Below are positions 2,800 to 27,521 of a stretch of DNA of 64,000 bases, piece after piece. The notes below the pieces were generated by a model. That model saw only the letters and a list, made by a program, of their open reading frames with translations, had not been told where the DNA came from and made no database searches. Made by a program: the position numbers and the translations under genes. Within the stretch, counting starts at the first letter, position 1; each line of letters starts with the position of its first letter. The stretch is from Shigella phage ESH35, in sequence record ON528745; one strand, given 5' to 3'.

Positions 2800-3042
2800 A
2801 TGAGATTACAACGTCAGAGCATCAAAGATTCAGAAGTTAGAGGTAAATGGTATTTTAATATCATCGGTAAAGATTCTGAGCTCGTTGAAAAAGCTGAACA
2901 TCTTTTACGTGATATGGGGTGGGAAGATGAATGCGATGGATGTCCTCTTTATGAAGATGGAGAAAGCGCAGGATTCTGGATTTATCATTCTGACGTCGAT
3001 CAGTTTAAAACTGATTGGAAAATTGTGAAAAAGTCTGTTTGA
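2800..3042 (+). CDS. Hypothetical small protein (80 aa)
   Basis: ORF with RBS GGAG upstream; downstream of an early-type promoter. Confidence 0.55.
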   Translation: MRLQRQSIKDSEVRGKWYFNIIGKDSELVEKAEHLLRDMGWEDECDGCPLYEDGESAGFWIYHSDVDQFKTDWKIVKKSV

Positions 3043-4254: not shown

Positions 4255-4602
4255 ATGAATTTTAATTATTACCCTATTCTATTAGAAAAAGATGAGAAAC
4301 AGCCAAAGTGGCAGGGTCCTCAGTTTATTAAAGGTGTCTATCAATTAGTAGTTCCTAAAGACAAGATTTATAGCAGTTGTTTCACTGAATCCGCTTGTAG
4401 TATTTTCGGTAATAGTTCTCCGTATTGGAATTTTGACATAAAGCTGGATAGAAATATCGATATTTGGTTGAAAGCTATGGATATTGGTAATATCACGTTT
4501 GATGAGAATAATTATCATATTATTGGTCGCTTTTCCAAACGCGGTAAAGAATTATATTTCACGCCTGAAATTGAGAGAAAATTTGATGCTAAACCGTATT
4601 GA
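4255..4602 (+). CDS. Hypothetical protein (115 aa) in an insertion between frd and td
   Basis: ORF with upstream GGCGGAAAT-ATG; no family recognised; lies inside a 416-bp segment flanked by duplicated TAAATGAAA. Confidence 0.55.
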   Translation: MNFNYYPILLEKDEKQPKWQGPQFIKGVYQLVVPKDKIYSSCFTESACSIFGNSSPYWNFDIKLDRNIDIWLKAMDIGNITFDENNYHIIGRFSKRGKELYFTPEIERKFDAKPY

Positions 4603-4647: not shown

Positions 4648-5508
4648 ATGAAACAATACCAAGATTTAATTAAAGACATTTTTGAAAATGGCTATGAAAC
4701 CGATGACCGAACGGGCACAGGAACAATTGCTTTGTTCGGTACTAAATTGCGTTGGGATTTAACCAAAGGTTTTCCTGCAGTAACAACTAAAAAGCTCGCC
4801 TGGAATGCATGCATTGCTGAGCTAATATGGTTTTTATCAGGAAGCACAAATGTCAATGATTTGCGATTAATTCAACATGATTCATTAATTCAAGGCAAAA
4901 CAGTCTGGGATGAAAATTACGAAAATCAAGCAAAAGATTTAGGATACCATAGCGGTGAACTTGGTCCAATTTATGGAAAACAGTGGCGTGATTTTGGCGG
5001 TGTAGATCAAATTATAGAAGTTATTGATCGTATTAAAAAACTGCCAAATGATAGGCGTCAAATTGTTTCTGCGTGGAATCCAGCTGAACTTAAATATATG
5101 GCATTACCGCCTTGTCATATGTTCTATCAGTTTAATGTGCGTAATGGATACCTTGACCTTCAGTGGTATCAACGTTCGGTAGATGTTTTCCTCGGTCTTC
5201 CATTTAATATTGCATCATATGCTACGTTAGTTCATATTGTAGCTAAGATGTGTAATCTTATTCCGGGAGATTTGATATTTTCTGGTGGTAATACTCATAT
5301 CTATATGAATCACGTAGAACAATGTAAAGAAATTTTATGTCGTGAACCTATGGATTTATGCGAATTACAATTAAAATTTCCAGATGAATTTGATGAATGG
5401 GACACAGAATCGCAGGTATTTTGGTTGAGTCAATTTGCAAAGCCTCATAATTTTGTTCTTAACAACTATGAATCACATCCTCCTATTAAAGGAAAGATGG
5501 CGGTGTAA
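4648..5508 (+). CDS. td: Thymidylate synthase, uninterrupted (no group I intron)
   Basis: 286-aa continuous [29 protein letters not shown]...[11 protein letters not shown]...PIKGKMAV; TS active-site Cys motif present. Confidence 0.95.
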
Positions 5509-6072: not shown

Positions 6073-8327
6073 TTAATGTTATCAAAAGTAGTGGTGTTTC
6101 TCAGAGCTTTGACCCGCAAAAAATTATTAAAGTTTTATCTTGGGCAGCCGAAGGAACATCTGTAGATCCTTATGAATTATATGAAAATATTAAATCATAT
6201 CTCCGTGATGGAATGACCACTGATGACATTCAAACCATTGTAATTAAGGCTGCTGCGAATTCTATTTCAGTTGAAGAGCCTGATTATCAATACGTAGCCG
6301 CTCGCTGTTTAATGTTTGCTCTTCGTAAGCATGTTTACGGACAATATGAACCACGTTCATTTATTGACCATATTTCTTACTGTGTAAATGAAGGTAAATA
6401 TGACCCTGAACTGCTGTCAAAATATTCAGCAGAAGAAATTACATTTTTAGAATCAAAAATTAAGCACGAGCGGGATATGGAATTTACTTATTCCGGTGCG
6501 ATGCAATTAAAAGAAAAATATCTAGTTAAAGATAAAACCACTGGTCAAATTTATGAAACTCCGCAGTTTGCATTTATGACTATTGGAATGGCACTGCATC
6601 AAGATGAACCTGTTGATAGATTAAAACATGTTATTCGTTTTTATGAAGCAGTATCTACTCGACAGATTTCATTACCAACTCCTATTATGGCTGGTTGTCG
6701 TACTCCGACTCGACAGTTTAGTTCATGTGTTGTTATTGAGGCAGGTGATTCGCTGAAGTCTATTAATAAGGCTTCAGCTTCAATTGTTGAATATATCTCT
6801 AAACGCGCTGGAATTGGTATTAACGTTGGTATGATTCGTGCCGAAGGTTCTAAGATTGGCATGGGTGAAGTCCGCCATACTGGTGTTATTCCTTTTTGGA
6901 AACATTTTCAGACTGCTGTTAAATCATGCTCACAGGGTGGAATTCGTGGCGGCGCTGCTACTGCTTATTATCCTATTTGGCATTTGGAAGTTGAAAATCT
7001 TCTCGTTCTAAAAAATAACAAAGGTGTTGAAGAAAACCGTATTCGTCATATGGATTATGGTGTTCAGCTGAATGATTTGATGATGGAACGATTCGGAAAG
7101 AACGATTACATTACTTTGTTCAGTCCGCATGAAATGGGTGGCGAGCTTTATTATTCTTATTTTAAAGACCAAGACCGTTTCCGTGAATTATACGAAGCAG
7201 CAGAAAAAGACCCTAATATTCGTAAAAAACGTATTAAAGCCCGTGAACTATTTGAATTGCTCATGACTGAACGTTCAGGAACAGCAAGGATTTATGTACA
7301 GTTCATTGATAATACGAATAACTATACTCCGTTTATTCGTGAAAAAGCACCTATTCGTCAGAGTAACTTGTGCTGTGAAATTGCTATTCCAACAAATGAT
7401 GTGAATAGCCCCGATGCTGAAATTGGATTGTGTACTCTCTCTGCATTCGTACTGGATAATTTTGACTGGCAAGACCAAGATAAAATTAATGAATTGGCAG
7501 AAGTCCAAGTTCGTGCTCTTGATAATCTTTTGGATTACCAAGGATATCCAGTTCCTGAAGCAGAAAAAGCTAAAAAGCGTCGTAACCTCGGTGTAGGTGT
7601 TACCAACTATGCAGCTTGGCTGGCAAGTAACTTTGCTTCTTATGAAGATGCTAACGATTTAACACATGAACTATTTGAGAGATTACAGTATGGACTCATT
7701 AAAGCATCCATTAAGCTCGCCAAAGAAAAAGGACCTTGCGAATATTATTCAGACACTCGTTGGTCTCGAGGCGAATTACCTATCGACTGGTACAATAAAA
7801 AGATTGACCAAATCGCAGCTCCAAAATACGTTTGTGACTGGTCGTCGCTGCGGGAAGACCTTAAGCTCTTTGGCATCCGTAATAGCACATTATCAGCACT
7901 TATGCCATGTGAGTCATCTTCCCAAGTTTCTAACAGTACAAACGGTATCGAGCCTCCACGTGGACCAGTCTCTGTTAAAGAATCAAAAGAGGGCTCCTTT
8001 AATCAAGTCGTGCCCAATATTGAGCATAACATAGACCTCTATGATTATACATGGAAATTAGCTAAGAAAGGTAATAAACCTTATCTCACGCAGGTAGCTA
8101 TTATGCTGAAATGGGTTTGTCAATCAGCTTCGGCGAATACATATTATGACCCGCAGATTTTTCCAAAAGGAAAGGTTCCAATGTCAATAATGATTGATGA
8201 CATGCTATACGGATGGTATTATGGCATTAAAAACTTCTATTATCATAATACTCGTGATGGTTCCGGTACTGATGATTACGAAATAGAAACTCCAAAAGCC
8301 GATGATTGCGCAGCGTGTAAATTGTAA
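6063..8327 (+). CDS. nrdA: Aerobic ribonucleotide reductase large subunit
   Basis: 754-aa product with ATP-cone N-terminus and class I RNR catalytic core (NLCCEI, C-terminal CAACKL); T4 NrdA length. Confidence 0.95.
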   Translation: MQLINVIKSSGVSQSFDPQKIIKVLSWAAEGTSVDPYELYENIKSYLRDGMTTDDIQTIVIKAAANSISVEEPDYQYVAARCLMFALRKHVYGQYEPRSFIDHISYCVNEGKYDPELLSKYSAEEITFLESKIKHERDMEFTYSGAMQLKEKYLVKDKTTGQIYETPQFAFMTIGMALHQDEPVDRLKHVIRFYEAVSTRQISLPTPIMAGCRTPTRQFSSCVVIEAGDSLKSINKASASIVEYISKRAGIGINVGMIRAEGSKIGMGEVRHTGVIPFWKHFQTAVKSCSQGGIRGGAATAYYPIWHLEVENLLVLKNNKGVEENRIRHMDYGVQLNDLMMERFGKNDYITLFSPHEMGGELYYSYFKDQDRFRELYEAAEKDPNIRKKRIKARELFELLMTERSGTARIYVQFIDNTNNYTPFIREKAPIRQSNLCCEIAIPTNDVNSPDAEIGLCTLSAFVLDNFDWQDQDKINELAEVQVRALDNLLDYQGYPVPEAEKAKKRRNLGVGVTNYAAWLASNFASYEDANDLTHELFERLQYGLIKASIKLAKEKGPCEYYSDTRWSRGELPIDWYNKKIDQIAAPKYVCDWSSLREDLKLFGIRNSTLSALMPCESSSQVSNSTNGIEPPRGPVSVKESKEGSFNQVVPNIEHNIDLYDYTWKLAKKGNKPYLTQVAIMLKWVCQSASANTYYDPQIFPKGKVPMSIMIDDMLYGWYYGIKNFYYHNTRDGSGTDDYEIETPKADDCAACKL

Positions 8328-9058
8328 TGAATTATCAAAAAATCTATAATGACCTAATTTCCCGAGCTCAGGCTCGGGAATCTTTATCAGAATATAAAGA
8401 GACACATCATATAATCCCTAGATGTATGGGAGGTTCTGATGATAAGGAAAATTTAGTTGAATTAACAGCCAGAGAACATTTTATAGCTCATTTACTACTA
8501 TGTAAGATAAATGAAGGCCATTTTGGGCTTGCTTCTGCGTTAACGTTAATGGCAACAGATAAAGCTGGCAATAGAATTAATAACAGATTGTACAGCTTAC
8601 ACAGAAAATTATTTGCTAAAGCTAATTCTGAGTTCTTTAAGAAATATTGGAAAAATAATCCTCATCCTAAAGGAATGTTAGGCAAGCACCATAAAAACGA
8701 AACTAAACAGCATGTATCAAACGTGAATAGATATGCATGCCCATCTATAGAAATACATAAATTCTCATTAGATGGGGATTTCATAGAAACCTTTCACTCT
8801 ATTGCGGCAGCGTCCCGGTCAGTTAATGGAAACGGGTCAAATATCAAATATTGTGCCGAGGGTAAATTTCAATATGCTTATGGATTTAGATGGTCATATC
8901 AACTTGATGCAAAGTTTGACAAAATAAAACCAAGAGATTATAAAGGAATCCGCGGTAAGAAATGGATTAATAATGGAAGTGAATGCACGCTTATAGGTAA
9001 AGATGATATTATACCGCCAGGTTGGAAACACGGCAGAATTTTAAAGAGGAAAAATTAA
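8327..9058 (+). CDS. mobE: Freestanding HNH homing endonuclease (MobE-like)
   Basis: HNH motif ...THHIIPRCMGGSDDKENLVELTAREH... plus C-terminal IPPGWKHG module; inserted between nrdA and nrdB with ATGA/TAATG overlaps. Confidence 0.8.
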   Translation: MNYQKIYNDLISRAQARESLSEYKETHHIIPRCMGGSDDKENLVELTAREHFIAHLLLCKINEGHFGLASALTLMATDKAGNRINNRLYSLHRKLFAKANSEFFKKYWKNNPHPKGMLGKHHKNETKQHVSNVNRYACPSIEIHKFSLDGDFIETFHSIAAASRSVNGNGSNIKYCAEGKFQYAYGFRWSYQLDAKFDKIKPRDYKGIRGKKWINNGSECTLIGKDDIIPPGWKHGRILKRKN

Positions 9059-10263: not shown

Positions 10264-11851
<1,588 letters not shown>

Positions 11852-11854
11852 GTT

Positions 11855-11884
11855 GTTTACAAGTCCCTCGTGTTGTGTTATAGT
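11855..11884 (+). promoter_or_regulatory. T4 early-type promoter upstream of alc
   Basis: GTTTACA, 17-nt spacer, TATAGT. Confidence 0.6.
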
Positions 11885-11908
11885 AGTCTTACTGACATAA
11901 CATGAGGA
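11855..11908 (+). repeat. 54-bp promoter/SD-sequestering hairpin module, copy A
   Basis: Identical to 27142-27195 except one base (C/T in the loop). Confidence 0.85.
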
Positions 11909-11912
11909 CTTT

Positions 11913-12419
11913 ATGATGGATTTGCAGCTTATTACTACTGAAATGGTCGTTGAAGCATACGGTGATACTACAGATGGGATTTCTGTATTCAAAGGAAATC
12001 GTCGAGTTGGATATATCACCGATCTTAAGAAAGATTTAGCTAAGCAAGTCAAGCGGAAAACGACCATTAAAGAATATCGAAATCGTCGTCTTGAGCAAGC
12101 CCGTGATATGCTTCCTGATGCGGTTGAGGAGATGAAAGTCTTTTTAGAAAATCAACTCGCTAAGTATGATTGTGAAGTGTTTATTAATCAGACTCAACCT
12201 AATGTTCATATCAATAGCTGCAAATGCTATATCATCGTTAATCCTTTGACAGGAAAGCATCGTCTTGGAATTAGTAATCCAAATCGTAGCGCATCGGATA
12301 TGGCAGAAGATGTTGCGGCGTGCTTTAAAATTTCTAAATCTCCGGCTGAACATCATATTTTAATTAACGGGCTTGCTCAAGACGATATTATAGAGGTTAT
12401 TAAAACTTTATGCATGTAA
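11913..12419 (+). CDS. alc: Alc (host transcription shutoff on cytosine DNA)
   Basis: 168-aa ORF between rnlA and the spanin pair, position and size of T4 alc. Confidence 0.7.
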   Translation: MMDLQLITTEMVVEAYGDTTDGISVFKGNRRVGYITDLKKDLAKQVKRKTTIKEYRNRRLEQARDMLPDAVEEMKVFLENQLAKYDCEVFINQTQPNVHINSCKCYIIVNPLTGKHRLGISNPNRSASDMAEDVAACFKISKSPAEHHILINGLAQDDIIEVIKTLCM

Positions 12420-14879: not shown

Positions 14880-15155
14880 ATGTTTCCGACTTATTCTAAA
14901 ATTGTAGAAGTAGTGTTTAGTCAAATTATCGCTAATAATATGTTTGAAAAGCTTGATAACGCAGCCGAGCTTCGAATTCATGCTCAAGTGACTCATGTAT
15001 TGAACACTTTGCTTCCAGACCAGGTGGATTCTGTTGCCATTACGCTGTATCCAGGTTCCGCGCATATCATTGTCGTATTCGGTCTTGATGCTGAGTTAGT
15101 TATTAAAGGCGATATTCGTTTTGAATCGCAGACAGCAGAATTCAAAGCAATTTAA
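14880..15155 (+). CDS. Hypothetical protein (91 aa)
   Basis: ATG 14880 preceded by GAGGT; alternative upstream ATG 14850 lies inside the previous ORF. Confidence 0.5.
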   Translation: MFPTYSKIVEVVFSQIIANNMFEKLDNAAELRIHAQVTHVLNTLLPDQVDSVAITLYPGSAHIIVVFGLDAELVIKGDIRFESQTAEFKAI

Positions 15156-15157
15156 TA

Positions 15158-15187
15158 GTTTACTTTACGGTAGAGTTGTGATATTAT
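15158..15187 (+). promoter_or_regulatory. T4 early-type sigma70 promoter
   Basis: GTTTACT, 17-nt spacer, TATTAT. Confidence 0.55.
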
Positions 15188-15216
15188 AGCTCTACCAAAC
15201 AAATGAGGAAAACAAA

Positions 15217-15456
15217 ATGCTGCTAAGTGAAAAACCGATTACTGTTAAAGAATTCCAAGAAAAAGTTAAGCTATTTGCACAGGAATTGATAAATAAGGTT
15301 TCTGAACGATTTCCTGAAACATCGGTTCGTGTTATTACTGAAACTCCTCGTTCAGTATTAGTAATTGTGAATCCAGGTGATGGCGATCAAATATCGCATC
15401 TTAAATTAGATTTTGATGGATTAGTTGAAGCACAAAGGGTGTATGGCGTACTATGA
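15217..15456 (+). CDS. Hypothetical small protein (79 aa)
   Basis: ORF downstream of an early-type promoter, RBS GAGGA. Confidence 0.5.
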   Translation: MLLSEKPITVKEFQEKVKLFAQELINKVSERFPETSVRVITETPRSVLVIVNPGDGDQISHLKLDFDGLVEAQRVYGVL

Positions 15457-15791
15457 TGAATTTAACTGATATAATTGATAATTGTCTTGAAAATGATACT
15501 GGCGATCATAGAGCGCTTGACTCTGAAACAGCACAGTTCATTAGAATAACTTTAATGAATGACACTCTAGTAAATAGTATTCATCCTTCCGTATATGATG
15601 CTATTATTGTGACGAAGTATCCAGTTGAGCTTCACAAAAAGATGGTTGGCGCAATTTTTATTGATAAGAAAAACCGCTTTAAAGATGGGCAGAATATAAT
15701 TAGTTCTGTTATTAAAAGTATAACTAAACTTCGTCACGAAATTTATCGTGTTGAAACTGCTAAATCTGCTTATCTGGTGATTATGAAATGA
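15453..15791 (+). CDS. Hypothetical protein (112 aa)
   Basis: ORF overlapping neighbours by 4 nt. Confidence 0.5.
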   Translation: MMNLTDIIDNCLENDTGDHRALDSETAQFIRITLMNDTLVNSIHPSVYDAIIVTKYPVELHKKMVGAIFIDKKNRFKDGQNIISSVIKSITKLRHEIYRVETAKSAYLVIMK

Positions 15792-16369
15792 AAGCGAGTA
15801 CAGTACTTCAAATTGCATATTTAGTATCGCAGGAATCAAAATGTTGCTCCTGGAAGGTAGGAGCAGTAATTGAAAAGAATGGACGTATTATTTCTACCGG
15901 ATATAATGGTTCACCTGCTGGTGGTGTGAACTGTTGTGATTATGCTGCTGAGCAAGGTTGGTTGTTGAATAAGCCTAAACACACTATCATTCAAGGCCAT
16001 AAACCTGAATGCGTATCATTTGGTTCAACTGATCGTTTTGTCTTGGCGAAAGAACATCGTAGCGCTCACTCTGAATGGTCGTCTAAAAATGAAATTCATG
16101 CTGAACTAAATGCAATTTTGTTTGCTGCACGAAATGGTTCTTCTATTGAAGGTGCTACTATGTATGTAACACTTTCTCCTTGTCCAGATTGTGCAAAAGC
16201 GATAGCTCAATCTGGTATTAAAAAACTGGTTTATTGCGAAACATACGATAAAAATAAACCTGGCTGGGATGATATTCTGCGAAATGCAGGTATTGAAGTG
16301 TTTAATGTTCCTAAGAAAAACTTGAATAAGTTAAACTGGGAAAATATCAACGAATTCTGCGGTGAATAA
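15788..16369 (+). CDS. cd: dCMP deaminase
   Basis: 193-aa product with cytidine/deoxycytidylate deaminase zinc motifs (HAE ... PCPDC). Confidence 0.9.
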   Translation: MKASTVLQIAYLVSQESKCCSWKVGAVIEKNGRIISTGYNGSPAGGVNCCDYAAEQGWLLNKPKHTIIQGHKPECVSFGSTDRFVLAKEHRSAHSEWSSKNEIHAELNAILFAARNGSSIEGATMYVTLSPCPDCAKAIAQSGIKKLVYCETYDKNKPGWDDILRNAGIEVFNVPKKNLNKLNWENINEFCGE

Positions 16370-16605
16370 TGAAATTTCGTTTGGTAAAGCTTACAGCAAT
16401 TAGTTCTTATTCTAACGAGAACATCTCGTTTGCTGTAGAGTATAAGAAATATTTTTTCTCTAAATGGAAACAGTATTATAAAACTGATTGGACTAGTATT
16501 GATAGACCATATAGTTGGAAATCTGATTTAGAAAAATGCCAAAAATTACTTTCCACCCTTAAAGAACGTGGAACAACTCATATTAAAACTGTAATAGGTA
16601 AATAA
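16369..16605 (+). CDS. Hypothetical small protein (78 aa)
   Basis: ORF between cd and gene 31. Confidence 0.5.
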   Translation: MKFRLVKLTAISSYSNENISFAVEYKKYFFSKWKQYYKTDWTSIDRPYSWKSDLEKCQKLLSTLKERGTTHIKTVIGK

Positions 16606-16914
16606 ATGAAACTGACAACTGAGCAGAAAGTAGCAATTCGCGAAATTTTGAAAACCAAATTGTCCATGGGTGTTTCAAACGTAGTTTTTGAAAAGTCTGA
16701 TGGTACTATTCGTACTATGAAAGGTACTCGTGATGCAGACTTTATGCCAACCATGCAAATTGGTAAATTGACTGAATCTACTCGGAAAGAATCTACTGAC
16801 ATGATTCCAGTATTTGATGTTGAACTTGGCGCATGGCGAGGTTTTTCTATTGACAAATTGATTTCTGTTAATGGTATGAAAGTTGAGCATTTGCTTCAAT
16901 TTATTGGTAAATAA
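16606..16914 (+). CDS. Hypothetical protein (102 aa)
   Basis: ORF between cd and gene 31. Confidence 0.5.
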   Translation: MKLTTEQKVAIREILKTKLSMGVSNVVFEKSDGTIRTMKGTRDADFMPTMQIGKLTESTRKESTDMIPVFDVELGAWRGFSIDKLISVNGMKVEHLLQFIGK

Positions 16915-16970
16915 ATGCTTTAAGAATTATTTGTTATTATTAATTCATCTGTTAACAAAAAGGAAAAACG

Positions 16971-17306
16971 ATGTCTGAAGTACAACAGCTACCAATTCGT
17001 GCTGTCGGTGAATATGTTATTTTAGTTTCTGAACCTGCACAGGCTGGTGATGAAGAAGTTACAGAATCAGGACTTATTATCGGTAAACGTGTTCAAGGTG
17101 AAGTTCCTGAACTGTGTGTAGTTCACTCTGTTGGTCCTGATGTTCCTGAAGGTTTCTGCGAAGTTGGTGATTTGACTTCTCTTCCAGTTGGTCAAATTCG
17201 AAATGTTCCGCATCCTTTTGTAGCTCTGGGTCTTAAGCAGCCAAAAGAAATTAAACAAAAATTCGTCACTTGCCACTATAAAGCTATTCCATGTCTTTAT
17301 AAGTGA
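16971..17306 (+). CDS. 31: Co-chaperonin gp31 (GroES-like, capsid folding)
   Basis: 111-aa product [19 protein letters not shown]...; size and position of T4 gp31. Confidence 0.85.
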
Positions 17307-18177: not shown

Positions 18178-18207
18178 GTTTACAGTATGGTTCCTTTGTG
18201 ATAGTAT
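18178..18207 (+). promoter_or_regulatory. T4 early-type sigma70 promoter
   Basis: GTTTACA, 17-nt spacer, TAGTAT. Confidence 0.6.
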
Positions 18208-18234: not shown

Positions 18235-18567
18235 ATGAAAACGATTAATCTGAACGCTGCAGTTAAAGCTAAATGCTTCAATGGTGAATATAACGAAACT
18301 ATGTGGTTCTTAATGGCAGTTGAAGGTGATATTATTGAAGTAGAAACAACAGAAGGTATGGGAACAGATTTCACCTTTACAATTCAAGTTCATAATTTCT
18401 TTACTGGTTGGATTTATGAATTGAATACAGTAATCGTTGGAAAAATTGAACAAAATGAATTAGGTGAATGGTATTATGTTACAGCTCGCCAACGTGCCGA
18501 ACGCTTAATTGAGAAGATGAAAAAAGTCGGTAAGCTTGACATGAAGCACTGGAAAGTAGTAAAATAA
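18235..18567 (+). CDS. Hypothetical protein (110 aa)
   Basis: ORF with AAAGGAG RBS downstream of an early-type promoter. Confidence 0.55.
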   Translation: MKTINLNAAVKAKCFNGEYNETMWFLMAVEGDIIEVETTEGMGTDFTFTIQVHNFFTGWIYELNTVIVGKIEQNELGEWYYVTARQRAERLIEKMKKVGKLDMKHWKVVK

Positions 18568-22956: not shown

Positions 22957-22964
22957 TATAAATA
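22957..22964 (+). promoter_or_regulatory. T4 late promoter (TATAAATA) for alt
   Basis: Exact TATAAATA 24 nt upstream of the alt start. Confidence 0.6.
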
Positions 22965-22987
22965 GAATAAACACTAGAGAGGATAAC

Positions 22988-25081
22988 ATGGAACTTATTA
23001 CAGAATTATTTGACGAAGATACTACTCTTCCGATTACAAACTTAAATCCAAAGAAGAAAATACCACAAATTTTTTCAGTTCATGTTGATGATGCAATTGA
23101 ACAACCAGGCTTTCGTTTATGTACCTATACATCTGGAGGTGATACTAATCGCGATTTAAAGATGGGCGATAAAATGATGCATATTGTTCCTTTTACATTA
23201 ACTGCTAAAGGCTCAATTGCTAAATTAAAAGGTCTTGGTCCAAGCCCAATTAATTATATCAATTCAGTTTTTACTGTTGCAATGCAAACGATGCGTCAAT
23301 ATAAAATTGATGCCTGCATGCTTCGTATTCTTAAGTCTAAAACTGCTGGCCAAGCTCGACAAATTCAAGTTATTGCTGATAGACTTATCCGTAGTCGTTC
23401 AGGTGGCAGATACGTCCTTCTTAAGGAACTCTGGGATTACGATAAAAAGTATGCATATATTCTTATACATCGCAAAAATGTATCATTAGAAGACATTCCA
23501 GGAGTTCCAGAAATTAGCACTGAACTCTTTACTAAAGTTGAATCGAAGGTCGGTGATGTTTATATCAATAAAGATACTGGAGCTCAAGTAACTAAAAATG
23601 AAGCAATTGCAGCATCTATTGCGCAAGAAAATGATAAACGTTCTGACCAAGCCGTAATCGTTAAAGTTAAAATTTCCCGTAGAGCAATTGCACAAAGTCA
23701 GTCATTGGAATCTTCTAGATTTGAAAGTGAATTATTCCAGAAGTATGAATCTACAGCAGCTAATTTTAATAAACCAGCTACTGCACCTTTAATTCCCGAA
23801 GCAGAAGAAATGAAAATTGGAATTAATTCATTAGCTTCTAAAACAAAGGCAGCAAAAATTATTGCTGAAGGAACGGCAGATGAACTTCACTATGATTATA
23901 AATTCTTTCCAATGAGTCAAGTCGGTGAAGTTTCAGAAAAAATTAAAGAAGTAATTTTTAATGCAATTAAAAATGAACCAACTACTTCAATAAAATGTTT
24001 AGAGAAATACGCAGCAGCTGTAAATCAATTCTTTGAAGATTATAAAGATAAATGGCTTGCTAATCATAATAAAAATCGTAAAGGACAACCAGATGAAGTC
24101 TGGGAAGAAATAACTAAAAATTCCTGGAACGCAGCAAAAACTAAATTCCTCAAACGAATGATTTACAGTTTTTCTGGAATTGGTGCTGGTCCAATGATTG
24201 ATATTACTATTGCCCGCGATGGTTCTAAATATACTCCATCACAAAAGCGTGGCATTAGAGAATATTGCGGTTCAGGATATACTGACATCAATAATCTTCT
24301 TTTAGGTCGTTACAATCCAGAACGATATGATGTAATGAGTGAAAAAGAAATTGAATCTGCTATAAATAACTTAGATTCAGCTTTTGAAAATGGTGACCGT
24401 ATACCAGAAGGCATTACAGTTTATCGTGCTCAAAGTATGACTGCTCCTATATATGAAGCGTTAGTTAAAAATAAAGTGTTCTACTTCAGAAATTTTGTAT
24501 CTACTTCTTTAACTCCTATCATTTTTGGACGTTTTGGAATCACACATGCTGGTATTGGTCTTTTAGAACCAGAAGCTCGCAATGAATTAACAGTTGATAA
24601 AAATGAAGAAGGAATAACTATTAATCCAAACGAAATAAGAGCGTATAAAGAAAATCCTGAATACGTTAAAGTTCAAATAGGATGGGCAATTGATGGAGCT
24701 CATAAAGTTAATGTTGTATATCCAGGAAGTCTCGGAATAGCAACAGAAGCTGAAGTTATTCTACCGCGTGGATTGATGGTCAAAGTTAATAAAATAACTG
24801 ATGCTTCTAATAATGACGGAACAACATCTAATAATACAAAACTCATTCAAGCTGAAGTTATGACCACGGAAGAGCTCACCGAATCGGTAATCTATGACGG
24901 AGACCATTTAATGGAAACCGGTGAAGTAGTTGCAATGACAGGTGATACTGAAATAGAAGACAGAGTTGACTTTGCATCATTTGTTTCATCAAACGTTAAA
25001 CAGAAAGTAGAATCATCTCTTGGAATTATTGCGTCTTGCATAGATATTACAAACATGCCTTACAAGTTCGTTCAAGGATAA
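22988..25081 (+). CDS. alt: Alt-like NAD-protein ADP-ribosyltransferase (virion-packaged type), copy 1
   Basis: 697-aa product starting MELITELFD; ART R/STS/ExE motifs (VYRAQ, FVSTSLTP, ATEAEVILPRG); late promoter TATAAATA just upstream. Confidence 0.85.
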   Translation: MELITELFDEDTTLPITNLNPKKKIPQIFSVHVDDAIEQPGFRLCTYTSGGDTNRDLKMGDKMMHIVPFTLTAKGSIAKLKGLGPSPINYINSVFTVAMQTMRQYKIDACMLRILKSKTAGQARQIQVIADRLIRSRSGGRYVLLKELWDYDKKYAYILIHRKNVSLEDIPGVPEISTELFTKVESKVGDVYINKDTGAQVTKNEAIAASIAQENDKRSDQAVIVKVKISRRAIAQSQSLESSRFESELFQKYESTAANFNKPATAPLIPEAEEMKIGINSLASKTKAAKIIAEGTADELHYDYKFFPMSQVGEVSEKIKEVIFNAIKNEPTTSIKCLEKYAAAVNQFFEDYKDKWLANHNKNRKGQPDEVWEEITKNSWNAAKTKFLKRMIYSFSGIGAGPMIDITIARDGSKYTPSQKRGIREYCGSGYTDINNLLLGRYNPERYDVMSEKEIESAINNLDSAFENGDRIPEGITVYRAQSMTAPIYEALVKNKVFYFRNFVSTSLTPIIFGRFGITHAGIGLLEPEARNELTVDKNEEGITINPNEIRAYKENPEYVKVQIGWAIDGAHKVNVVYPGSLGIATEAEVILPRGLMVKVNKITDASNNDGTTSNNTKLIQAEVMTTEELTESVIYDGDHLMETGEVVAMTGDTEIEDRVDFASFVSSNVKQKVESSLGIIASCIDITNMPYKFVQG

Positions 25082-25084
25082 ATC

Positions 25085-27142
25085 ATGGAACTTATTACAG
25101 AATTATTTGACGGCGCTTCGGCGCCGGTTGTTAACTTAAATCCTAAGCATAAAATACCACAAATTTTTGCTATTCAAGCCGGTGAAGAAAGCGTGCTTCC
25201 TGGATTTAGATTTTGTACATACACCTCTGGCGGTGATACGAATAAAAACGTTAAGCCAGGCGACAAAATGATGCATATCGTAATGATAGGCGTCAACGAG
25301 AAATTATCGTTAGTTAAGCTTAAAAACTTGGGTGGAAATCCAATTGGCGTCATTAATGCGGTTTTTGATACTGCTCTTCAAACAATGAAACAGTATAAAA
25401 TTGATGCATGCCTATTCCGCGTACTAAAAAGTAAAACAAATGGCGCTGCTCGTCAAATGCAAGTTATTGCTGACCGTTTAGTACGTACTAAAGGAGCAGG
25501 TCGATATGTTCTTTTAAAGGAAATCTGGGACTATGATAAGAAATACGCATATATTATGGTTTACCGTAAAAATGCCAATTTAGAAGACATTCCAGGTGTA
25601 CCTCCTATTTCAACTGAGTTATTCACAAAAGTTGAATCAAAGGTTGGTGATGTTTATGTAGACGTTAAAACAGGTAATGCTGTTCCTAAAGCTGTCGCAG
25701 TTGCTGCTTCTATTGCTTTAGAAAATGATAAGCGTACGGATCAAGCTGTTATTCAGAAAACTAAAATTAGTCGTCGATTAGCAGCACAAGCTCAATATTC
25801 TACTGTTGATGCTTCACTTCAGGGTGATAGCTTCGCTGCTAAGAAATATCAAGAGTTTGAATCTAAAGTTCCGGTATATAAAGCAGAAGGACCAATGAAC
25901 TCTGGCGTTATTCAGATTGGTTCAAACTTCAGCAAAGGAGCTATCGGTGGTATGAGAAGTGCTTCTCGTTTTAAATCTAACGATTATGAACTAGAAAGCT
26001 TCCGAAATCATATTGCATTAGCCCATGCACGTTTACGTGATCCATCTATCAAGTTGCAGAGCGATATAACATATCAAAGTTCTCAAGAATATTTAAAGAA
26101 TAAAGAATTTTTTGATTATAAAACTGATAAAATTTTAAGCGATCTTGCTGACATTAATATTTCTAATAGCTTTGATGTTATTAAGAAAATTGTCAATGAT
26201 TTAGTTAAAGGTTCTAAAGCTACGCCAGATGAAAAGACAGCTATTATTCAATTTGTCATGAATGGCATTTATAAATTAATTGATGAATCCGCTGCTCAGG
26301 CGTATGAATATGCAAGCACTGAAGTAACTCCAAAAGGATTGACTCAGGCTGAGTCTGATGTAATTGAAGATTATTGCGCAGATTCGTATGTTGAAATGAA
26401 CTCATTCCTTTTAGGTAAACCTGATTCTACACGTGAAGAATACATGGAGCGCGCTATTAAGCACATCGAGACTATGGATTCTGCGTTTGCTAAAGGTTCA
26501 GTTCTTCCTCCGGGAACTACACTTTACCGTGGCCAAGAAGTTACTTTTAAAACTTTACGTCATAATATAGAAAATAAAATGTTCTATTTCAAGAACTTTG
26601 TATCTACTTCACTCAAGCCAAATATCTTCGGTGAATATGGTAAAAATTATATGGCTTTAGATGACGCTGGAACAGTATTTTCTGGTGAAGGAGAAGGTTC
26701 AGTTGATGCTGAAGATTTAATGCATATGGGTAGTCATTCTACATATGCGAATGAAGACGCTGAAACTAATGTAGGTATGGTAATTAAAGGAGCTGAACGA
26801 GTTAAAGTTATCGTTCCAGGTCATTTATCAGGATTTCCATCCGAAGCTGAAGTTATTTTGCCGCGTGGAATTTTACTGAAGATTAATAAAGTAAGTACGT
26901 ACATGATGAAAGAAACCGCTTATAATAAGTATCTAATTGAAGGCACGATTGTTCCTCCTTCTGAACAATTAGAGGAATCGGTATATGATGGTGACCATTT
27001 GATGGAAACCGGAGAAGTTCGTCCAATGGCTGGATTTAATCAATTCCTTGTAGAAGAATCAAAAGAAGAGGAAAGCGAAGTTTCTCAAATCTTAGCTTCT
27101 TTGGTTAACATCAACGGAATGTCTAAAAAGTTCAAAATGTAG
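25085..27142 (+). CDS. Alt-like ADP-ribosyltransferase paralog, copy 2
   Basis: 685-aa product also starting MELITELFD; ART motifs (LYRGQ, FVSTSLKP, PSEAEVILPRG); N- and C-terminal regions similar to copy 1, central region divergent. Confidence 0.8.
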   Translation: MELITELFDGASAPVVNLNPKHKIPQIFAIQAGEESVLPGFRFCTYTSGGDTNKNVKPGDKMMHIVMIGVNEKLSLVKLKNLGGNPIGVINAVFDTALQTMKQYKIDACLFRVLKSKTNGAARQMQVIADRLVRTKGAGRYVLLKEIWDYDKKYAYIMVYRKNANLEDIPGVPPISTELFTKVESKVGDVYVDVKTGNAVPKAVAVAASIALENDKRTDQAVIQKTKISRRLAAQAQYSTVDASLQGDSFAAKKYQEFESKVPVYKAEGPMNSGVIQIGSNFSKGAIGGMRSASRFKSNDYELESFRNHIALAHARLRDPSIKLQSDITYQSSQEYLKNKEFFDYKTDKILSDLADINISNSFDVIKKIVNDLVKGSKATPDEKTAIIQFVMNGIYKLIDESAAQAYEYASTEVTPKGLTQAESDVIEDYCADSYVEMNSFLLGKPDSTREEYMERAIKHIETMDSAFAKGSVLPPGTTLYRGQEVTFKTLRHNIENKMFYFKNFVSTSLKPNIFGEYGKNYMALDDAGTVFSGEGEGSVDAEDLMHMGSHSTYANEDAETNVGMVIKGAERVKVIVPGHLSGFPSEAEVILPRGILLKINKVSTYMMKETAYNKYLIEGTIVPPSEQLEESVYDGDHLMETGEVRPMAGFNQFLVEESKEEESEVSQILASLVNINGMSKKFKM

Positions 27143-27171
27143 TTTACAAGTCCCTCGTGTTGTGTTATAGT
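27142..27171 (+). promoter_or_regulatory. T4 early-type promoter (repeat copy B)
   Basis: GTTTACA, 17-nt spacer, TATAGT. Confidence 0.6.
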
Positions 27172-27195
27172 AGTTTTACTGACATAACATGAGGA
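27142..27195 (+). repeat. 54-bp promoter/SD-sequestering hairpin module, copy B
   Basis: Near-identical to 11855-11908. Confidence 0.85.
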
Positions 27196-27202
27196 ACACA
27201 AA

Positions 27203-27493
27203 ATGAAATCTTCTTTGCGCTTTTTAGGTCAAGAACTCGTCGTTGAGGGCGTTATTCCCGCTGATAACGCTTTCAATGAAGCAGTTTATGATGAATTTAT
27301 TAAAATTTTCGGAACCGATAAAAAGTTTGGAATTTTTCCTTCTGAAAATTTTTCAAAGCCAGAACAGACTGAAAGTATTTTCCAAGGTGTAGTAACAGGT
27401 AAATTTGAGTCAGAAGCTCCGGTAAAAATTGAGGTTTATATTGAAGAAACCTCTGTTGCTTCAGTTGCTGCTTTTATTTCATTTCGTAAATAA
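27203..27493 (+). CDS. Hypothetical protein (96 aa)
   Basis: ORF with GAGGAA RBS downstream of the repeated early promoter/hairpin module. Confidence 0.5.
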   Translation: MKSSLRFLGQELVVEGVIPADNAFNEAVYDEFIKIFGTDKKFGIFPSENFSKPEQTESIFQGVVTGKFESEAPVKIEVYIEETSVASVAAFISFRK

Positions 27494-27499
27494 AAATAT

Positions 27500-27517
27500 G
27501 GGGACCTTTCGGTCCCC
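27500..27517. terminator. Bidirectional terminator hairpin between convergent operons
   Basis: GGGGACC-TTTC-GGTCCCC flanked by A-rich and T-rich tracts. Confidence 0.65.
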
Positions 27518-27521
27518 ATTG

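Follow-up and report, generated by a model that had tools for sequence, protein, structure and literature searches.

T4-type phages carry promoter-early stem-loop (PeSL) cassettes (Arbiol et al. 2010, PMC2839356; Comeau et al. 2014, PMC4122927), for which the promoter consensus in phages PST and T4 is TTTACW-N17-TAYWAT (PMC4122927). In the T4 genes e, soc, 49, and I-TevI, hairpins sequester the Shine-Dalgarno (SD) sequence and are relieved by an internal promoter (reviewed in PMC3014915). The early promoters of T4 form the "uber" class, composed of UP, -35, TGn, and -10 elements (Hinton 2010, PMC2988021). We analyzed a promoter/hairpin module upstream of alt.-3 in a 64,000-nt stretch of DNA from Shigella phage ESH35 (sequence record ON528745; the window) and compared it with these systems. 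The module is a known kind of element that T4 itself carries, and it is not a trace left by recent assembly of the genome. It is the ordinary resident early promoter of alt.-3, a strong one of the sigma-70 type, in a Tequatrovirus (T4-like) genome. The features of the locus and of the second module copy are as follows (window positions).

10691-11851 and 11913/11916-12419: rnlA and alc, the genes on either side of copy A
11852-11908, + strand: copy A of the module
11856-11861, 11879-11884, and 11904-11908, + strand: -35, -10, and SD of copy A
22957-22964, + strand: sequence match to the late-promoter motif TATAAATA, ahead of alt
22988-25081, + strand: alt, the first Alt gene
25085-27142, + strand: second Alt-like ADP-ribosyltransferase gene (PF03496, phrog_802), the intact form of T4 alt.-1/alt.-2
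27139-27195, + strand: copy B of the module, before alt.-3
27143-27148, + strand: -35 hexamer TTTACA (extended GTTTACA from 27142)
27163-27165 and 27166-27171, + strand: TGn and TATAGT, together the extended -10 (promoter scan)
27153-27194, + strand: predicted RNA hairpin of 18 bp (lower stem 14 bp, upper stem 4 bp, 3 G.U pairs)
27178, + strand: predicted transcription start (A), 7 nt past the -10 and within the hairpin top, placed by sigma-70 geometry
27191-27195, + strand: SD of alt.-3, GAGGA, of which GAGG (27191-27194) is predicted to pair with CCUC (27153-27156)
27203-27493, + strand: alt.-3, 96 aa (PF17602/DUF5498, 3e-62; phrog_1739), ATG at 27203
27498-27519, both strands: bidirectional intrinsic terminator between alt.-3 (+) and gene 54 (-)

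A repeat search of the window paired copy B with copy A as a 57-nt direct repeat that is identical at 55 positions (96%) over a distance of 15.3 kb. Chance matches to a 58-nt pattern of the module were expected zero times (100 shuffles), which confirms the repeat as real and far beyond chance. The initial annotation had placed a second copy of the promoter/hairpin module at 27142-27195, and its coordinates were right within 3 nt. It had also put this copy directly after the second Alt-like gene, whose stop codon indeed ends 1 nt before the -35 hexamer and abuts the module. No third copy was detected in the window at up to 14 substitutions, including the frd-td insert (4255-4602), which was also inspected. 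The layout of copy A before alc is that of copy B before alt.-3, and the neighbors of copy A were recognized by their domains (PF17527 ALC in alc; T4 RNA ligase 1 domains in rnlA).

The copy B promoter matches the sigma-70 consensus at 10 of 12 positions, with a 17-nt spacer and an extended -10 (promoter scan), and it fits the PeSL consensus except at one -10 position, where TATAGT has G for W. As a T4 early promoter, with its excellent -35, TGn, and -10 and its position before T4 early genes, it differs in nothing; what is special is the pair of nearly identical copies and their embedding in a hairpin. The last codons of the second Alt-like gene make up the A-rich stretch that precedes the -35, and the segment 27120-27142 (TGTCTAAAAAGTTCAAAATGTAG), which ends in the TAG stop codon of that gene, contains 17 A/T among 23 nt, only modestly above the A/T background of the genome. 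No promoter is annotated at the alt.-3 site in the T4 records AF158101, NC_000866, and KJ477684 or in phage Ac3, and the literature on T4 start-site mapping and on a promoter hairpin at alc/rnlA yielded nothing specific. Other early promoters in the window share the PeSL build of the module promoter.

The module resembles PeSL cassettes in its sigma-70 early promoter, the A/T-rich stretch upstream, the stem-loop in or over the promoter, its intergenic position, its repetition in the genome, and the SD and ATG of a small downstream gene at its 3' end. It differs in that the stem runs from the spacer through the -10 and the start site to the SD and lacks a U-tract. It is also fixed in place across the genus and unlinked to insertions and deletions of the Alt paralog, whereas PeSL cassettes are tied to insertions, deletions, and replacements that distinguish close relatives. 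The text of the PST study of PeSL cassettes (PMC4122927) names neither alc nor alt.-3.

In the predicted fold of copy B, positions 27153-27166 pair with 27181-27194 (core) and 27169-27172 with 27177-27180 (upper stem), so that the hairpin spans the promoter spacer, the -10, and the predicted start site and takes the spacer as its 5' arm. Its stability of -23.2 kcal/mol (z, -5.7) was equaled by none of 200 shuffles, and hairpin A is predicted to be similar (-22.5 kcal/mol; z, -5.8). The 5' arm lies upstream of the -10 and is therefore absent from the promoter's own transcript, wherever the exact start falls. RNA beginning at 27178 was predicted to be unstructured (centroid, 0 kcal/mol; z, +1.4), as was the copy A equivalent from its predicted +1 (z, +1.3). 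An Rfam covariance search of both regions returned nothing on the hairpin and only subthreshold chance matches elsewhere. We consider it probable that the module is an early-promoter cassette of the PeSL type whose spacer-to-SD hairpin hides the alt.-3 ribosome-binding site on read-through RNA. The start at ~27178 and the translational block are both predicted, from promoter geometry and from the modeled folds.

The strand on which the hairpin is stable bears on the level at which it acts. Two unlinked promoters that share 55 of 57 nt suggest co-regulation, and the inverted repeat extends over both the -10 and the start site, as would be fitting for a DNA operator at which a dimeric protein, of phage or host origin, turns the alc and alt.-3 promoters on or off together. 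However, 3 of the 18 pairs are G.U and would be mismatches in duplex DNA. Because of these pairs, the antisense strand folds about 7 kcal/mol worse than the sense strand (about -16 kcal/mol; z, -3.3), a bias that points to a probable RNA-level role on the sense strand. The substitutions seen in related phages add further G.U pairs, and in other genera the SD remains paired although the sequence differs, all of which makes an operator very improbable.

The hairpin could also serve chiefly to terminate or attenuate transcription arriving from upstream and so shield alt.-3 and alc from it. The authors of the PeSL study assign such a role to their stem-loops, one of which matched the rrnB T1 terminator in lowering lacZ expression (PMC2839356), and the stem described here is likewise long and stable. 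Against this, no U-tract follows the stem in copy B (AACACAAAAUG) or copy A (CUUUAUG), and the terminator scan reported no site at 27150-27200 or 11860-11915, yet it found the canonical terminator 300 nt farther on at 27498-27519 (9-bp stem with 6 GC pairs, detected on both strands). Moreover, the 3' arm coincides exactly with the SD in three genera with differing sequences, a match that termination would not require. We regard termination as an unlikely main function; a stem that reaches the SD without a U-tract indicates that its likely job is translational occlusion.

RNA processing or stability offers another explanation, in which the helix is an RNase III site or protects the 3' ends of the alt and rnlA messages and the occlusion of the SD is incidental. 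At 18 bp, the helix is nearly perfect, but it is short, since typical RNase III substrates have longer helices. T4 mRNAs are extensively processed (PMC3014915). A role in processing leaves unexplained the constant presence of the SD at the end of the 3' arm, and we find this explanation quite unlikely.

Under the favored reading of an SD-occluding early-promoter cassette, host RNA polymerase would initiate at ~27178, within the hairpin top, and the early transcripts would carry only the 3' arm, leave their ribosome-binding site free, and be translated. Transcripts entering from upstream would contain both arms and fold, hiding GAGG; because such read-through transcripts carry the whole hairpin, their ribosome-binding site should be blocked. 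The RNAs silenced in this manner would be the late alt/alt-paralog mRNA at copy B and the rnlA mRNA at copy A, and Alt.-3 and Alc would be made solely from their own early promoters.

The transcriptional context in the window and the expression classes of T4 are compatible with this scheme. Both alt genes stand behind a terminator and the late-promoter motif TATAAATA, and late transcripts that run on through alt and its paralog as far as the module probably start from the motif at 22957-22964. The scan found no + strand terminator-like site inside the Alt paralog or between the paralog and the module, and within alt it reported a single one, a weak 5-bp stem with GTTGTCCTTTA after it. The T4 classes are early RNA and early protein for alc and alt.-3, middle RNA and late protein for alt, and late protein for rnlA, the upstream neighbor of alc (PMC9697503 supplements). 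The proposal that the module drives the 96-aa ORF is thus most likely correct, given the early RNA and early protein of T4 alt.-3 and the late protein of the upstream alt. The boundary between early + strand genes and - strand baseplate genes that had been drawn here holds for the switch of strand, with gene 54 on the minus strand, but "early" does not fit the two alt genes in view of the late motif and the T4 classes.

The comparison with e, soc, 49, and I-TevI shows both the same architecture and a different timing. As in those genes, the SD of the module is sequestered in a predicted helix, the promoter is located within the sequence coding for the 5' strand of this helix, and the promoter's own transcripts, which lack that strand, are proposed to be translated while read-through RNA is silent. 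In those genes, however, the internal promoter is late (TATAAATA) or middle and early RNA is silenced, whereas the module has an early promoter and late or long RNA would be silenced. With the timing reversed, the module is a variant of the group and no strict member. Neither alc nor alt.-3 appears in the list of genes with sequestered ribosome-binding sites in the review (PMC3014915).

The pairing of the alc spacer with the SD is predicted to be kept in Karamvirus and Jiaodavirus despite different stem sequences. In Karamvirus CkP1, the alc spacer UCUCCGUUUUUG pairs with CAAAAACGGAGA, which contains the SD GGAG (-20 kcal/mol; z, -6.7), and in Jiaodavirus K65PH164, UCCUCAUCAG pairs with CUGAUGAGGA (-23.2 kcal/mol; z, -5.5). 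The alc leader hairpin of phage Roth19 had a z of -3.1. Across genera, the helices occupy different registers relative to the promoter. A different design, with a small hairpin within the spacer and an unpaired SD, is found at alc in Mosigvirus and at alt.-3 in four other genera, so SD occlusion is not universal. We tentatively suggest, at slightly less than an even chance, that alc and alt.-3 share an early-only gate that is ancestral at alc, given the compensatory change among Tequatrovirus, Karamvirus, and Jiaodavirus, and that alt.-3 acquired by copying in the ancestor of Tequatrovirus; ectopic conversion may still be homogenizing the two copies.

Within Tequatrovirus, 97.9% of the stem cells are paired across 13 distinct copies, a value in which 3'-arm variation is censored because half of the copies were gathered by anchoring on the 3' arm. 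Four stem pairs change yet stay paired (C-G to U.G twice, G.U to A-U, and U.G to U-A), and pairing is lost at three substitutions (C12A, G16U, and G29A), of which G29A improves the -10 to TATAAT. No two-sided compensatory change was present among the Tequatrovirus copies compared, and the shuffle control was uninformative; the covariation in this genus fits the hairpin weakly. In the copy B form of T2, T6, and PST (GUUCCUUAUG), a C.A mismatch at the stem base gives way to a perfect helix with its own flank GGAAC (-24.1 kcal/mol; z, -7.6).

The position of the module is stable across phages. A total of 507 phage (Tequatrovirus) records hold 1005 module places, or about 2 copies per genome, and T4, T2, T6, and PST each carry copies A and B at corresponding sites. 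A scan of IMG/VR anchored on the 3' arm gave only 10 loci, all Tequatrovirus-like, and in these the position is fixed as well. The initial annotation had suggested recombination through the repeat, with the module as the joint, as the way in which the boundary region and its extra Alt-like gene came together. The repeat itself is real, PeSL cassettes are documented recombination substrates in T4-type phages (PMC2839356, PMC4122927), and the deletion of the paralog in T4 ends ~10 nt upstream of the -35. However, the module stays at its site whether there are two alt genes (the window, T2, T6), one (Yersinia phage PST, in which the single alt gene is followed directly by the module and then alt.-3), or one with remnants (T4, whose paralog is reduced to alt.-1/alt.-2). 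Furthermore, frd (145109-145690) and td (143235-145112) abut in T4 without an insert. The comparison across T4-like genomes, which had been set beforehand as the test that could refute the suggestion, thus found the module without an intact Alt paralog or a frd-td insert, and the suggestion did not survive it.

Other evidence from the alt genes agrees. An early promoter stands at the same exact place before alt.-3 in other genera, and VR7 and CkP1 have one alt gene (their annotation shows the whole interval). The junction of alt and its paralog (25081-25085) contains no module, and the two genes are tandem duplicates with 41% amino acid identity, which on sequence grounds marks the duplication as an old tandem event. 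The T4 paralog was reduced by a 1.69-kb deletion between 9-nt direct repeats (CTAAAAAGT), a microhomology outside the module, which was left intact; this is the only rearrangement we reconstructed. Since the copies are direct repeats 15.3 kb apart, a crossover joining the two would cause loss or duplication of ligase, gene 31, cd, and pseT, and not of the alt genes. We accordingly find the joint barely credible, and the module carries no information on the origin of the extra Alt gene. In PST, the alt gene was considered as a clean crossover chimera of alt1 and alt2 and rejected as such; its identity to alt2 is ~90% along the whole gene, and only the 5' end is alt1-like. Copy B is a paralog of the alc promoter cassette and did not arise from the Alt duplication; in the ancestor of Tequatrovirus, it was probably created by an ectopic copying or conversion event. 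The direction, from alc to alt.-3, is one that we infer, and copying between the two sites has possibly been repeated since.

Specialists in T4 would find little surprise in the module, because PeSL cassettes and hairpins that sequester ribosome-binding sites are both established. The alt.-3 gene is non-essential and uncharacterized in T4, and it is already of interest because mutations that extend the C terminus of Alt.-3 allow T4 to escape the CmdTAC defense (PMC11618068). The module offers a neat case, open to experiment, of the way in which a T4-type phage gene can be held strictly early although late genes precede it on the same strand, and it suggests shared regulation of alt.-3 and alc, the inhibitor of host transcription. 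If the early-only gate is true, Alt.-3 would be tied to the strict early host-takeover program of Alc, and a timing-reversed class would be added to the paradigm of e, soc, 49, and I-TevI.

The window belongs to a Tequatrovirus (T4-like) genome, and a 2.8-kb query across the module matched 503 phage records at 90 to 98% identity, T2, T6, RB51, and wV7 among them. The plus-strand gene order, supported by the annotations of T4, T2, and PST, runs nrdA, nrdB, denA, rnlA, alc, and pseT, and further on 30 (ligase), alt.1, alt, the second Alt-like gene, and alt.-3, after which the strand switches and baseplate genes 54, 48, and 29 lie on the minus strand. The window also carries a homing-endonuclease ORF (phrog_655) between nrdA and nrdB (8327-9058), a 115-aa ORF of unknown function (phrog_1928) between frd and td (4255-4602), where T4 has none, and a td gene (286 aa) that is apparently one continuous ORF. 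The features surrounding the two copies of the module are as follows.

10691-11851, plus strand: rnlA, the 5′ neighbor of copy A
11852-11908, plus strand: copy A, with alc (PF17527) on its 3′ side
22957-22964: late-promoter motif TATAAATA, upstream of the alt genes, which also follow a terminator
25085-27142, plus strand: second Alt-like gene (PF03496, phrog_802), whose TAG stop ends one base before the -35 box
27139-27195, plus strand: copy B
27143-27148, plus strand: -35 box TTTACA of copy B, followed by a 17-nt spacer and TGn
27166-27171, plus strand: -10 box TATAGT of copy B, from the promoter scan
27203-27493, plus strand: alt.-3, a 96-aa ORF (PF17602/DUF5498)
27498-27519, both strands: bidirectional terminator separating alt.-3 from gene 54

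The initial annotation described a repeated promoter/hairpin module driving the 96-aa ORF; the repeat is confirmed, and the functional label is supported. Copies A and B are identical at 55 of 57 nt, and no third copy was found in the window either with the 58-nt string at ≤3 mismatches (0 matches expected by chance) or in a looser search allowing ≤14 substitutions. The RNA of copy B (27150-27200) folds into an 18-bp hairpin (-23.2 kcal/mol, z = -5.7), and copy A, laid out in the same way between rnlA and alc, into one of -22.5 kcal/mol (z = -5.8). In the predicted lower stem of copy B, 27153-27166 pairs with 27181-27194. The promoter spacer supplies the 5′ strand of this stem, and its 3′ strand closes with the Shine-Dalgarno sequence (SD) GAGG (27191-27194), 8 nt ahead of the ATG. 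Both the -10 box and the expected start, an A at 27178 that lies 7 nt past that box, fall in the hairpin top, so transcripts from copy B's own promoter must be without the 5′ strand. Folding of RNA that begins at 27178 gave no significant structure (z +1.4; +1.3 for the copy A equivalent), and a transcript coming from upstream contains both strands. G.U pairs make up three of the 18, and the antisense fold is 7 kcal/mol less stable (-16 kcal/mol, z -3.3); the hairpin is thus better understood as sense-strand RNA than as a DNA palindrome. No U-run follows the copy B stem, and the terminator scan made no call there. A mini-ORF of 5 codons, probably incidental, can be made out at 27189-27206 (AUGAGGAACACAAAAUGA); it lacks its own SD, and its stop overlaps the initiation codon of alt.-3.

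The build of the module matches the published definition of the promoter-early stem-loop (PeSL) cassette, namely, a sigma-70 early promoter, an A/T-rich upstream stretch, a stem-loop in or over the promoter, and an SD with ATG (PMC2839356); the PeSL promoter consensus in PST and T4 is TTTACW-N17-TAYWAT (PMC4122927). Further GTTTAC-type early promoters with a hairpin over the -10 box occur on the plus strand of the window at 2294, 2734, 15159, and 18571. The hairpin of the plus-strand promoter at 18179 likewise spans the -10 box; there the SD of a 110-aa ORF (18235-18567), ACAAAGGAG, is taken up in pairing with the spacer, UUCCUUUGU (-12 kcal/mol). The promoter-in-hairpin design is thus common in the ESH35 genome. 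A promoter inside the 5′ strand of a ribosome-binding-site-sequestering helix is an established T4 mechanism in e, soc, 49, and I-TevI (PMC3014915), a list from which alc and alt.-3 are absent. Those genes have a late or middle internal promoter, and it is their early RNA that is silenced, whereas in copies A and B the timing would be reversed. Rfam returned no family matches, and neither an annotated promoter nor a mapped start for the copy B site was found in phage records or the literature.

The initial annotation also took the position of copy B beside the extra Alt-like gene as a sign that the boundary had been assembled by recombination involving the repeat. By the annotation's own standard, this tie is refuted by the relatives, in which the module keeps its positions irrespective of the paralog and the frd-td insert. 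Both copies occupy the same two sites in T4, T2, T6, PST, and ten IMG/VR Tequatrovirus loci, and a 67-nt module query hit 1,005 places in 507 records (∼2 per genome). The alt content beside copy B differs among genomes, and the module is constant. The window, T2, and T6 have alt (697 aa) and an intact paralog (685 aa), and PST has one alt gene (686 aa; 14947-17007 in the PST sequence L009) with 92% amino acid identity to the paralog and an alt-like N-terminus, which implies that one tandem copy was lost or merged. T4, without the frd-td insert (frd 145109-145690, td 143235-145112), has alt and the remnants alt.-1/alt.-2, already called an old duplication by its annotators. In our reconstruction these remnants result from a 1.69-kb deletion within the paralog that had 9-nt direct repeats at its ends (CTAAAAAGT; window 25423-25431 and 27125-27133; T4 sequence L001 about 4975-5020) and spared the module and the final codons of the paralog. 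The two genes are tandem duplicates, 41% identical, and no module lies at their 3-nt junction. Their first 29 nt are 100% identical (22987-23015 and 25084-25112; CATGGAACTTATTACAGAATTATTTGACG, encoding MELITELFD) against 41% for the proteins overall, which could reflect local gene conversion or a strong constraint on the N-terminal peptide.

Variation within Tequatrovirus is consistent with the hairpin, if thin. Among 13 distinct copies, 97.9% of cells are paired, four stem pairs vary by one-sided, pair-preserving changes, and three pair-breaking substitutions occur, one giving an improved -10 box, TATAAT; no two-sided compensatory change was seen. Copy B of T2, T6, and PST (GUUCCUUAUG) forms a perfect helix with its own flank GGAAC (-24.1 kcal/mol, z -7.6), and that of the window and T4 has copy A's arm, leaving a C.A mismatch, a pattern compatible with, though not proof of, A-to-B conversion.

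Outside Tequatrovirus, alt.-3 still follows alt, with a GTTTACA-type early promoter and a ACAUGAGGA leader, as compared in Dhakavirus LHE83, Gaprivervirus VR7, Mosigvirus HX01 and mar005P1, and Karamvirus CkP1. In these four genera the alt.-3 spacer forms only a small local hairpin, unpaired with the SD, of 4 to 6 bp with the loop A/UGGA(A) (e.g., CCACAAGGAUGUGG); the Mosigvirus alc spacer also forms one. Such hairpins lie in the alt.-3 and alc upstream regions of comparison-phage sequences L003 (about 1660-1722), L004 (about 2955-3016), L005 (about 2955-3017), L022 (about 780-841), L025, and L026, and their stems covary between phages. They may resemble the high-affinity hairpin of CsrA, RUACARGGAUGU, with a second GGA in the SD. 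The alc promoter spacer is complementary to the SD in three genera, Tequatrovirus among them, with three different stem sequences. In Karamvirus CkP1 UCUCCGUUUUUG pairs with CAAAAACGGAGA, which contains the SD GGAG (-20 kcal/mol, z -6.7); in Jiaodavirus K65PH164 UCCUCAUCAG pairs with CUGAUGAGGA (-23.2 kcal/mol, z -5.5), and Roth19 has the same arms (-19.1 kcal/mol, z -3.1). This three-genus pairing is the strongest argument for SD occlusion as the property preserved by selection. The alc comparison suggests, too, that the cassette first resided at alc and that the Tequatrovirus alt.-3 copy is secondary. The 3′ half of copy B, TATAGTAGTCTTACTGA-ACATGAGGAACACAAAATG, stands before an unrelated 66-aa ORF in the ndd region of Mosigvirus LF82-41 (L006 about 2480-2541), a partial copy hinting that the leader cassette moves between genes.

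The upstream genes had been described as early. This does not hold, as the alt genes follow a terminator and the late motif, and in time-resolved T4 transcriptomics and proteomics alt falls in the middle class by RNA and in the late class by protein (PMC9697503 supplements). The same data class rnlA as early by RNA and late by protein, and alt.-3 and alc as early on both counts, consistent with each module having an early expression unit of its own. The alt.-3 gene is nonessential and uncharacterized, and mutations extending its C-terminus let T4 escape CmdTAC (PMC11618068). Copy B is an early-promoter cassette of a known type, fixed in position, and very probably the resident one of alt.-3. 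The most likely role of its hairpin, which we favor with moderate confidence, would be to ensure that alt.-3 and alc are translated only from RNA started at their own early promoters.
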